From Trueperaceae bacterium (GTDB taxonomy: Bacteria; Deinococcota; Deinococci; Deinococcales; Trueperaceae): a stretch of DNA of 64,000 bases. The stretch covers positions 2,848,001 through 2,912,000 of the forward strand of contig CBDCDZ010000004.1 in NCBI GenBank assembly GCA_965215565.1, given 5' to 3'. Under the pieces are notes generated by a model. It was given only the letters and a program-made list of their open reading frames with translations. It was not told where the DNA came from and did not search any database. This document shows, one piece after another, positions 1,400 to 7,466 of this stretch. Made by a program: the position numbers and the translations under genes. Every line of letters starts with the position of its first letter. Within the stretch, counting starts at the first letter, position 1.

Positions 1400-1510
1400 T
1401 AGCAGTTCCACGACACACTGAGACAGTTGAACGCAGGTATCATCTCTTAAAGTGCGTGCTAAACAGCGTTTCACAAAGTGAGAGTGTCTCTGACCAGATG
1501 ATACCTGCTA
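1400..1510 (+). mobile_element. 111-bp MITE-like repeat copy R1 (no insertions)
   Basis: TAGCAGTTCCACGACACACTGAGAC...CGCAGGTATCATC...AAGTGCGTGCTA...CCAGATGATACCTGCTA. Confidence 0.85.
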
Positions 1511-1558: not shown

Positions 1559-1735
1559 TTGCAGGTATCATCTGGTCGCGAGCGCTCTCACCGAAGAGAG
1601 CGTCTTCTAGCACGCACACTGAAGATGAAATTCCGCTCTCAGGCGAAGCCGTCCCGCTAGGCTTCGCCTGAGAGTGGGATGGTTCTTCGTCTGAGACTTG
1701 CGACACTTTATCTCAGTTATGTCGTGGTGCTGTGT
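1559..1735 (-). mobile_element. Repeat copy R2 with three nested ~22-nt insertions (177 bp)
   Basis: Reverse scaffold GCAGGTATCATCTGGTC...TAGCACGCAC...TCTCAGTTATGTCGTGG; 66 extra nt at about 1630-1696. Confidence 0.75.
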
Positions 1736-1736
1736 G

Positions 1737-1847
1737 TAGCAGTTCCACGACATACTGAGACAGTTGAGCGCAGATATCATCCCCCGAAGTGTGTGCTAGA
1801 CTGTTCATTTCTCGCTAAGGGTATCTCTGACCAGATGATACCTGCTA
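1737..1847 (+). mobile_element. 111-bp repeat copy R3 (no insertions)
   Basis: Same ends and motifs as R1, same length. Confidence 0.85.
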
Positions 1848-5266: not shown

Positions 5267-5564
5267 TTACTTCATAAACTCCTTCGTCGTTTATTCCGTT
5301 ATCACCGGAATCCGTACTTGTTTCTACTCGCTGGAGAGTCCTCAACTGGGCGTATCATGCCGCTATAAATACCCGCCGCGTTCATTTGAAGATGCTACCT
5401 CCAGTTGAAGACTCTTTGCTCGGGATTAAACACGCGATAAAGTCGCGTGTTTAACCGGAAAGGGTATGAAGCGCCGCAGGTCACGCAGCCCCAAAGTAGA
5501 TAAAAGAGAAAAAGCCGGAGTGCTTAGCTCCAGCTTCCCTCTTTTTAAGAGTATCCAACAGTGT

Positions 5565-5747
5565 CTAGCCGCCGCCCGTCATCATACCGCCCGTCATCAT
5601 ACCGCCCGTCATCATACCGCCCGTCATGTCGCCGCCCGTCATGTCGCCGCCCGTCATCACGCCGCCTGTGTCCTGCGCAAAAGCGAAAACTGCGAGAACA
5701 GTGACGATCAGAATAGAAAGACCGGAGATGCTCAATGTCTTTTTCAT
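5565..5747 (-). CDS. Secreted 60-aa MTGG pentapeptide-repeat peptide
   Basis: Signal peptide ending AFA-Q, then DTGGV(MTGGx)6; AAAGGAG RBS. Confidence 0.75.
   Translation of the reverse strand: MKKTLSISGLSILIVTVLAVFAFAQDTGGVMTGGDMTGGDMTGGMMTGGMMTGGMMTGGG
5570..5672. repeat. 15-bp tandem repeat encoding MTGGx
   Basis: CCGCCCGTCAT(CATA/GTCG) repeated about six times. Confidence 0.9.
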
Positions 5748-5940
5748 GGATTCTCCTTTCTGTTGGCTCTACACTATACGGACTCGTACGTAAGTAAAAA
5801 ATTACACTCGGTCCATATGGATAGGAGTATAGAAGCTACAACATGAGGTTACAAGAGGATTTTGATGAGATGAAAATGTGGTCAAGTTAAAGGCGCTGTT
5901 CATTTATGACTATTTGTCTATAGACCTGTAGGGCATACGA

Positions 5941-5970
5941 AAAAGCCTTCCTCGAGCCGAGGAAGGCTTT
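5941..5970. terminator. Terminator hairpin
   Basis: AAAGCCTTCCTCG / CGAGGAAGGCTTT. Confidence 0.7.
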
Positions 5971-6169
5971 CTTATGTTAATTGAACTTAGAACGATTAGG
6001 CTGTGCTGACACTTGCCCTTTAAGAAAATCACTCATCGTCCCTACAAGGTAAACCTACGTACTTTATAGTCTTCTTATACCTTGCTTCTTGATTCCTACT
6101 CTTTGCTTTTTACTTTTTGCGTGCAGCAAGGCAAACCTTATAGAAGACAGTTCGAAAAGTCAACAGAGC

Positions 6170-6661
6170 CTAGTTGCCGCCCGTCATACTACCGCCTGTC
6201 ATACCGCCCGTCTCACTGGAGAGAAGTTGTCCGGCGTTGAGTAAAACCGTGCCGAGGTCCACGAGTTGCGCGACTTGGTCCCCTTCGGCTTGATCGGCGG
6301 CGTCGATAGTCCCTTCGCCGATAGAGGTGAGCAGGCGGCTGACCTCCCCTTGATCTATCGTCTCGGCGGAGAGCGCGCTCTGCAATTCTCCTAACTGATC
6401 GGCTAACGTGTTGAGCGCAGGATTGGACGCGCTGCTCAACGTGTTGCGCCAGCTCTCGATATTGCTCGAGGCGTTTTCTAAAGCGATGTCGGTGAGACCA
6501 CCCTCGAGGAGCGCCGTCGTCTCCGTCACCGACGGGGCGCTGCTATCCCCCGTCATGCCACCTGTCATACCGCCCGTCATGCTACCACCCGTCATCGTAC
6601 CGCCTGTTTGAGCAAAGGCGAGGCAGGTTAATAGAGCCAAAGTTATCGTTAGTATTTTCAT
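6170..6661 (-). CDS. Secreted protein with MTGG repeats flanking a helical acidic domain
   Basis: Signal peptide AFA-Q; MTGG repeats at both ends; paralog of 6942..7466. Confidence 0.75.
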   Translation of the reverse strand: MKILTITLALLTCLAFAQTGGTMTGGSMTGGMTGGMTGDSSAPSVTETTALLEGGLTDIALENASSNIESWRNTLSSASNPALNTLADQLGELQSALSAETIDQGEVSRLLTSIGEGTIDAADQAEGDQVAQLVDLGTVLLNAGQLLSSETGGMTGGSMTGGN

Positions 6662-6682
6662 CTTTTCTCCTTTTCGGTGCTT

Positions 6683-6859
6683 TAGCAGGTCTCAGCCTTT
6701 CTTAGGCGAAGCCTAGCGGATTGGCTAGCTGGACCTCATCTAGTCTGAAACACTCTCACTGTAGAAAACGTTGATGAGTGCCCACTTTTGGAGATGAAGA
6801 CCAACCAAACCTCGTCTGAGAACTGCGGTAATCTGTCTCAGTGTGTTCTGGAACTGCTA
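6683..6859 (-). mobile_element. Repeat copy R4 with three 22-nt insertions (177 bp)
   Basis: TAGCAGGT[44 nt]CTCATCTAGTC ... GATGAA[22 nt]AACTGCG...TGTCTCAGTGTGTTCTGGAACTGCTA. Confidence 0.7.
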
Positions 6860-6941
6860 CTTAGTGAGGTGAGCCCGATCAAATTTTGAGGACCGGACCC
6901 TCTTGTTCTCATTCCTGAATTGTGGCCTAAGTTGTGGCGCG

Positions 6942-7466
6942 CTAGTTGCCGCCCGTCATACCGCCCGTCGCGCCGCCCGTGACCGTGACGTCCTCGACGT
7001 CGATGTTCGAGAGGCTCGTGCCCGCGTCCGAGAGGAGCGTACCGAGGCTCGCGAGCTGCGCAGCTTCGTCGCCCTGCGCGCCCTCGGCTGCCGCGCTCGT
7101 TCTGCCGCCGAGTTCGGTGAGGAGCAAGCCTACCGAGGTTTGATCGATAGATTCGGTTTGTAGAGTCGCTTTGAGTTCTGCGAGCTGCTCAGCAATCGCG
7201 AGGAGCGCAGGGTCACCCGTACTCTCTAGTCGCATCTGCCATCCCTCAATATTGCTTATCGCTTGTTCGGCGGGTAAGTTCGTGAGACCACCCTCTAACG
7301 CCTCAATCGTGCCGCTAACCGTGGGTGATTCGTCGGTCATCCCGCCCGTCATCATGCCGCCCGTAGCCATGCCCCCTGTCATCGTGCCGCCCGTATCCTG
7401 CGCAAAGGCAGCGCCCATGAATAGTCCTAGAATAAACCCTGAAGTAAGTACGTGAATGAGTTTCAT
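6942..7466 (-). CDS. Secreted protein with MTGG repeats (paralog of 6170..6661)
   Basis: Signal peptide AFA-Q; shared LEGGLT..SNIE.W..L....PAL core; ends MTGGN. Confidence 0.75.
   Translation of the reverse strand: MKLIHVLTSGFILGLFMGAAFAQDTGGTMTGGMATGGMMTGGMTDESPTVSGTIEALEGGLTNLPAEQAISNIEGWQMRLESTGDPALLAIAEQLAELKATLQTESIDQTSVGLLLTELGGRTSAAAEGAQGDEAAQLASLGTLLSDAGTSLSNIDVEDVTVTGGATGGMTGGN

Follow-up and report, generated by a model that had tools for sequence, protein, structure and literature searches.

A very probably mobile, self-nesting hairpin element of 20-25 nt inserted in the short repeats of a Trueperaceae genome

Three copies of one short repeat, family A, lie close together in the window (the whole stretch of 64,000 nt that was analysed, part of a 4.49-Mb Trueperaceae genome, G000), and one of them is considerably longer than the other two. 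R1 (1400-1510, plus strand) and R3 (1737-1847, plus strand) are intact 111-nt copies, the first with a duplicated ATT on each side and with both sites for the insertions described below empty, the second likewise without insert. R2 (about 1559-1732, minus strand), aligned to the family majority sequence, is a decayed copy with mutations in both terminal repeats, and it hosts additional DNA. This raises the question of what the additional sequence is and how it got there. A first-pass annotation had read it as three units of a second micro-element, family B, each inserted into the previous one. Indeed, all three nested strings were found where this reading had placed them, the inner one at 1652-1673 (minus strand), the middle one at 1637-1651 and 1674-1680 (plus strand) and the outer one at 1630-1636 and 1681-1696 (minus strand).

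The boundaries of the individual units could be refined. The inner unit (1652-1673, minus strand) is intact and has a GGC-GAA-GCC hairpin, which is typical of the self-nesting subfamily. At its 3' junction a single C (1651, minus strand) stands in place of the TA of the middle unit, which results in a net gain of 21 nt and is the same junction as in most other nests. The middle unit (1637-1679, plus strand), delimited by sequence and by peeling of the nest, is split into a 5' arm with hairpin (1637-1650) and a 3' arm with one C-to-T change (1674-1679). Its 3' junction (1680-1685, plus strand) reads TG followed by GTTC, a flank that is also present in nests hosted by GTTC-type units; it disrupts the hairpin of the outer unit and may have been carried over from the donor. 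The outer unit (1631-1696, minus strand), also split, comprises a 5' arm with a broken hybrid hairpin (1696-1682) and a 3' arm (1636-1631). The total of 66 nt (1631-1696) agrees with the earlier reading, but the steps amount to +22, +23 and +21, provided that the outer unit started as the GAC type, and not to three times 22, since at each insertion the target TA was swapped for one or two other bases. Likewise, the proposed sum of 111 and 66 matches the expected copy length of 177 nt only approximately, because both ends of R2 are mutated and small indels are present.

The nest forms a long hairpin with 21-nt arms and a 9-nt loop (z of -6.4 for the DNA fold) between divergent genes, which encode a DUF4388 protein on one side and a small frame preceding a metallophosphoesterase on the other. 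As the first-pass annotation had pointed out, this hairpin is a by-product of nesting that could be mistaken for a terminator. An intrinsic terminator was rejected here: the long stem was not called in the terminator prediction, which gave one weak site compared to 0.4 expected, and the region lies between divergent genes. Rfam returned only miRNA-type chance hairpins below gathering scores. For genome annotation this means that nests create long false hairpins, and they explain much of the length variation of the host repeat. Elsewhere in the window, a perfect 18-bp inverted repeat between convergent frames (275-317) is probably a two-way terminator, and three small minus-strand genes (5466-7466) encode proteins with repeated MTGG peptides.

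Family A, the host of the nest, gave 528 profile matches in G000, corresponding to about 500 copies, and a 3-bp target duplication was found for 91 of the 124 copies having both ends. The left end of R1 is identical in 24 of 27 bases to the end of a DDE_3 (IS630-type) element of about 990 bp in the sister species (G001), which is likewise flanked by a 3-bp duplication; elements of this kind are also present in the third genome of the genus (G002). From these common ends and the target duplication we conclude that family A, as judged by its sequence, is an IS630-type MITE; an intact autonomous partner was not found in G000. Correia and RUP elements are IS630-family-derived MITEs as well, which the host repeat resembles in its 111 nt and in terminal repeats that a DDE_3 transposase element also has, but from which it differs by duplicating 3 bp of any sequence and not TA. 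At G000:C4:948282 and 2634301, MITE A lies within a B unit and within another A copy, with a 3-bp duplication each. Decayed IS630-type transposase genes at G000:C4:1932500-1934700 are interrupted by A copies and by cassettes, and two MITE copies interrupt a leader (G000:C4:1478900-1479400; L153, 5986-6876), which gave no Rfam match at gathering score and which we take to resemble a cobalamin riboswitch.

The 22-mer of the inner unit is dispersed over the genome. A genome-wide search revealed eight exact copies, that in the window included, and 45 copies within three mismatches, all of them on the chromosome. The family turned out not to be one 22-mer, as had been assumed, but to consist of fixed ends around a variable hairpin, with TCTCW and TAGCGGRA as the ends on one strand and GCTA before the stem on the other. 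A descriptor of the fixed ends, which did not require a hairpin, gave 109 matches, including 82 hairpins with a stem of at least three pairs, whereas block-shuffling of the genome (three replicates) left 13-14 matches and 0-1 hairpins. The hairpin is thus kept despite sequence change, and 12 stems of different sequence were found. With a wider descriptor, in which the loop had to begin with G or A and to end with A and which dropped only five other hairpin matches, we identified 116 intact B units of 20-25 nt. The closing pair is C-G in all 77 triloops among them, without this being a requirement of the descriptor, and the triloops belong to the types GNA (56) and ANA (21, of which 19 are AAA); four-base loops, GCAA, GTAA, GTCA, GTTA and GCTA among them, are found in 39 units.

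The landing sites of these units are few. In the MITE there are two, located in the interior and at the right end, which share GCAGG-TA-TCATC and account for 107 of the 116 units; the rest reside in B-like hosts, other B units also being used as targets. Empty sites mostly carry TA (154/189 internal, 276/286 terminal). At the 107 filled sites TA is never kept and is replaced by TT (79), CT (13), CC (10), TC (3) or TG (2), the window nest having TT at 1629-1630 (minus strand) of the internal site. B itself was ruled out as a MITE by terminal inverted repeats and target duplication, the latter being absent from all 107 junctions. The 5' flank of the target is retained upon insertion, and with the unit excised by its fixed boundaries the flank change in 49 filled-empty neighbour pairs was not higher than in 121 empty-empty pairs; apparent extra changes just 5' of B were an alignment artefact, which disappeared after this excision. 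Almost every B copy is embedded in repetitive DNA, which permits conversion by homology, and the concentration at MITE sites would also be in line with host repair, i.e. template switching or short-tract gene conversion among the about 500 MITE copies, with the hairpin merely stabilising a looped-out intermediate. What speaks against such a process is the lack of flank co-conversion beyond TA and the rarity of empty sites with TC or CC (6/189 internal, 2/286 terminal), which could be a trace of conversion-type or precise loss; the TC found at seven of 475 empty sites may reflect rare loss by slippage between two TCA copies.

B occupies the MITE largely independently of the MITE backbone. A tree was built from 296 backbones, from which the inserts had been taken out; it included 79 with B at the internal site and left out R2 as too diverged. 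On this tree we counted 66 changes of B state, which is near random (70.3 ± 2.6 with shuffled labels). The nearest backbone was empty for 57 of the 79 carriers, and 11 of the 79 are within one base of an empty copy; one MITE subfamily of 29 near-identical copies even comprises 14 empty, eight single, one double, five triple and one unparsed copy. Orthologous loci led to the same picture. Among 34 loci of the relatives, 18 had a two-sided orthologue in G000, and the MITE was shared at one of them (L109), which is filled in G001 and empty in G000. A scan of 2.0 of the about 4.6 Mb of G001 added two pairs (G000:C4:1479068 and 2780505), again empty in G000 and filled in G001, one by a single unit and one by a two-deep nest; a further candidate, G000:C4:3778275, was rejected as paralogous. 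In all three pairs the insertion is precise at the short target, and since all three G000 copies keep TA, these are likely to be gains in G001. The near-random placement on the tree and the orthologous pairs are difficult to reconcile with the assumption that only a few B insertions occurred and then spread as cargo of the MITE, which we regard as very improbable and, as the sole cause of the distribution, refuted. Cargo spread probably contributes some copies, given that near-identical three-deep composites recur within one MITE subfamily and that GTCC carriers are more similar to one another than empty copies are (median of 22 vs 32 differences).

For the window nest itself, orthologues with zero, one or two units, which the first-pass annotation had envisaged, were not found, as the orthologous intergenic region of G001 and G002 lacks all three MITE copies, and the empty and filled counterparts are those of the three other loci. 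The MITE was shared with G001 for none of the 24 G000 B units (of 116) that have a two-sided orthologue in the scanned 2.0 Mb, which explains why no orthologous pair one nesting step apart was seen. Taken together, the genome census, the nests and the comparison of empty with filled sites bear out the earlier proposal, and we conclude with high confidence that B is a mobile element that nests in itself.

The distribution of B is narrow. The 22-mer had no exact match outside this Trueperaceae genus in GTDB, and its pattern was absent from 16 same-order genomes of other families. Within the genus, the three genomes gave 68, 10 and 20 B-in-MITE matches, and a set of 101 family genomes contained one match outside the genus. 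The same MITE is found in the sister genus (G005, G055), but no B was present in the 30 copies viewed, which is not what host repair among MITE copies would lead one to expect. One of these 30 copies (L231 in G055) contains an insert of about 20 nt similar to cassette C (see below), so that the cassette system may exist at a low level in the sister genus. JGI metagenomes gave no match for B or cassette C, and two viral scans gave zero and two matches, the latter without mini-hairpin and taken as chance. A three-deep nest with a GTTC outer unit was present in a sequencing run from another study, while the contigs of three runs did not span the window nest.

Strict peeling revealed 26 nests, ten of them two-deep, 15 three-deep and one four-deep, with some of the two-deep calls being under-peeled. 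Three-deep nests outnumber two-deep ones, and the inner two units may therefore be transferred jointly, as a block, in some cases. The orientation alternates in most nests, and in the window the inner and middle hairpins are identical, as are the inner and host hairpins in 6 of the 26 nests, the window nest being one of these. Both observations would be compatible with a local inverted duplication at a stalled fork without a distant donor; the first-pass annotation had named a single local inverted duplication as a finding that would overturn its reading. In the other 20 nests, the inner hairpin differs from that of its host, in many cases by one base; in addition, same-orientation insertions into loops occur, and the middle unit of the window nest does not match the outer one. 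Local duplication is thus refuted as a general cause and is hardly credible as the origin of the nest, even if the last step in the window, with its identical hairpins, may be one. At G000:C4:3140760-3140990 two nests are joined and the MITE interior is gone, which suggests recombination between an internal and a terminal nest.

The outer unit had been regarded as more diverged because it was older, which our data do not show. Its broken half, GACGAAGAAC, is unable to pair, was found in nests only, and is identical at three loci in two species on three different MITE backbones, namely G000:C4:2837563 (two-deep), the window nest and locus L005 of G001 (three-deep, with an AAA inner unit). The GAC and GTTC types both exist as unnested units, and the broken half could be either a hybrid generated by flank carry-over or part of a single decayed composite that was transferred as a block. 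In neither case does its divergence date the unit at the window locus. The innermost state differs among the three loci (none, GAA and AAA), which supports a separate last insertion step, and at a non-orthologous G001 locus the same two-deep nest carries another inner hairpin. The order of events in the window would accordingly have run from the outer to the middle to the inner unit, with transfer of a two-unit block being possible.

The subfamilies of B are linked to different sites. The GGC-[AG]AA subfamily accounts for 25 of 27 innermost nested units, none of its 29 units is located at the internal MITE site, and GTCC, TTGC, GTTC and GCTC units are never innermost in nests; the copies are not independent, so that the table of sites against subfamilies overstates the significance. 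That the hairpin type tracks the site is also what donor homology would predict if host repair were at work, but targets without upstream similarity are in use as well. For four same-orientation insertions into hairpin loops (two each in G000 and G001), the similarity to the usual nest target is confined to the downstream TAGGC. Furthermore, the junctions in non-GGC hosts take on YGGC, the flank of the GGC type, and in G002 a single insertion at the end of a MITE has the nest-type 3' flank TGGC where TATC would be expected. The tracking of site and hairpin, the TAGGC loop targets and the YGGC and TGGC junctions suggest that the donor strand is precise at its 5' end and brings along a small number of 3' flanking bases. 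B lacks a target duplication but replaces TA, and one replaced base alone cannot fix which of the two junctions is precise; we derive the polarity, i.e. a precise 5' end and a flank-guided 3' end, from the variable 3' bases together with a handful of carry-over cases.

A mechanism that would account for these features is the copying-in of B as single-stranded, folded DNA. Its 5' end would be joined precisely to the target, and its 3' tail would anneal via a few bases of donor flank, thereby guiding the strand to like sites, with the inserting enzyme acting in trans. Movement as single-stranded DNA under guidance of the 3' flank appears to us slightly more probable than its negation. GCGNAGC and GCGNNAGC are unusually stable, nuclease-resistant DNA mini-hairpins, and among 64 triloops only GNA gave mini-hairpins, the tested RNA version melting far lower, according to the accessible text of PMC13037366. 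The C-G-closed GNA loops of B may hence point to folded single-stranded DNA, although the 21 ANA loops, 19 of them AAA, fall outside the GNA rule. No clear bias was seen with respect to replication, with the mini-hairpin strand being lagging for 66 and leading for 50 units in a genome with weak GC skew. Under RNA parameters only, a longer stem can be folded, which has a 3-base bulge and needs G-T pairs in its lower part. This stem, the 3' carry-over and the presence of four reverse transcriptase frames (PF00078) in G001 would fit an RNA intermediate and target-primed reverse transcription with the 3' flank as primer site. We nevertheless judge this route improbable, as neither G000 nor G002 has a PF00078 match, and as the loops are mostly of three bases and closed by C-G, with the tetraloops GTCA, GTTA and GCTA not being GNRA.

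The search for an enzyme acting on such a single DNA strand did not reveal any candidate that tracks B in the families searched. A Y1/RAYT search gave one Y1 domain in G000 and none in G001 and G002. The respective frame of 1322 aa (G000:C4:3783300-3787300; L010, 4708-8676, minus strand) is of the restriction-modification type and contains the RAYT-like Y1 domain in frame, followed by short repeated peptides. Searches for IS91 Y2 and ISAzo13 gave no candidate, the control searches being equally silent. Rpn and Replic_Relax were rejected because they do not track B, Cas1 because its neighbouring frames indicate an ordinary type I-E locus, and Uma2 because its 33-35 copies in the three B genomes are matched by 29 in G005, which has no B. 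A derivative of an IS110 bridge recombinase was rejected as well: seven IS110 copies are inserted at a distance of two bases from a B site, and by eye no resemblance between their ends and B was apparent. These near-identical copies (G000:C4:639261, 682174, 1227558, 1291539, 2530746, 3106157 and 4135953) all lie in the right end of MITE A, and their 5' non-coding part has two short stretches that by eye match the two target halves in a bridge-RNA-like manner; one IS110 of G002 targets another repeat. The silence of the enzyme search is in keeping with host repair, which on all the evidence above we still consider rather unlikely. With respect to the single-stranded DNA mechanism, a dedicated enzyme and a host repair enzyme appear about equally probable to us.

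B is not the only cassette in the MITE. Among 138 duplication-bounded copies, 96 deviate from 111 nt and contain 180 insertions of at least 10 nt, which are clustered at few positions and some of which are alignment artefacts of the divergent left end. At about positions 35, 61-63, 88, 98 and 103 of MITE A, further cassettes of 20-27 nt fall into at least six families, several of which have two mini-hairpins. In most of them an A follows the insertion point, and they form nests with one another as well as within B. Cassette C, a member of this group, forms a clean 21-nt indel in comparison to G001 and has 18 occurrences in unique non-coding DNA; its matches amount to 56, 6 and 10 in the genomes of the genus, with a single match outside the genus in a set of 128. 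A double-hairpin cassette of 40-43 nt, bounded by AGGT and ACCT, was seen at G000:C4:651710, 3038274, 3038425 and 3670032 as clean indels compared to G001. It is conceivable, though we put this forward only tentatively, that C(GNA)G mini-hairpins are recognised by a single enzyme acting in trans, which mobilises no fewer than six unrelated cassettes of 20-27 nt, targets them via donor 3' bases and destroys the target. If true, such a copy-in system would parallel flank-guided editing in nature and would supply the mechanism that is missing for SDR-type elements (small dispersed repeats) in several phyla. With about 500 landing pads of near-identical sequence, several families of cassettes and a B-free sister genus, the present system offers junction rules and a contrast in gene content for the enzyme hunt, and the rules themselves, i.e. 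loss of TA, 5' precision, 3' carry-over and DNA-type loops, make the mechanism testable.

Among known systems, REP elements and REPINs resemble B in having a short hairpin with a loop of three or four bases and a fixed unpaired tag, and TnpA-REP (RAYT) is described as acting by single-stranded cleavage and strand transfer in the available part of PMC8266576. B was rejected as a REP or REPIN, as it has neither the GTAG/CGTC tag nor a free-standing, repeat-flanked RAYT gene, the features given in the accessible text of PMC8266576 and PMC3733652, and it consists of single nesting units instead of paired dimers. The small noncoding repeats (SNRs) of Deinococcus radiodurans, from the same order, are modular, mosaic repeats as far as described in the available text of PMC1978522, and it is by this description that B is set beside them. 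Yeast mitochondrial GC clusters and fungal double-hairpin elements are tiny palindromic mobile units that merge and show co-conversion tracts where they insert, with no known enzyme in the portion of PMC4478555 that is accessible; the GC clusters differ from B by a putative target duplication and their organelle context and have no sequence link to it (further background: PMC6006769, PMC2884548 and PMC3184786). A description of the present repeats in Trueperaceae was not found in the literature searched, which comprised main texts and few subscription papers. To our knowledge, elements of 20-25 bases are too short for the ends of known transposases or for circular intermediates.

The closest likeness is to the small dispersed repeats SDR1-8 of Nostoc and relatives (Elhai et al. 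2008, Genome Res 18:1484), which are about 21-27 nt long, and which reportedly have hairpins with compensatory changes, nest in themselves, reside in minitransposons and occur as several families per genome. With 20-25 nt and 116 units, the members of B have the length and copy number of this class, and the precise insertion at a short target, the nesting (26 loci) and the residence in a MITE (107/116) are shared as well. In the parts of the papers available, SDR5 is given as 21 nt (PMC13756078) and as precisely inserted inside HIP1 (PMC4390886), SDRs are reported for Nostocaceae alone among HIP1-rich cyanobacteria (PMC5861425), and the elements are also cited in PMC3116915 and PMC3733652. The phylum is different, the host of B being a Trueperaceae genus and not a member of the Nostocaceae. 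For B, the loss of the target TA, loops of the DNA mini-hairpin type and targets specific to subfamilies could be documented. SDRs are the one described bacterial class of such size, and in the accessible texts their mechanism appears to be still open. By this analogy, B seems to work like the Nostoc SDR elements and would represent a real, well-supported variant of a kind of element that is already known but unexplained.
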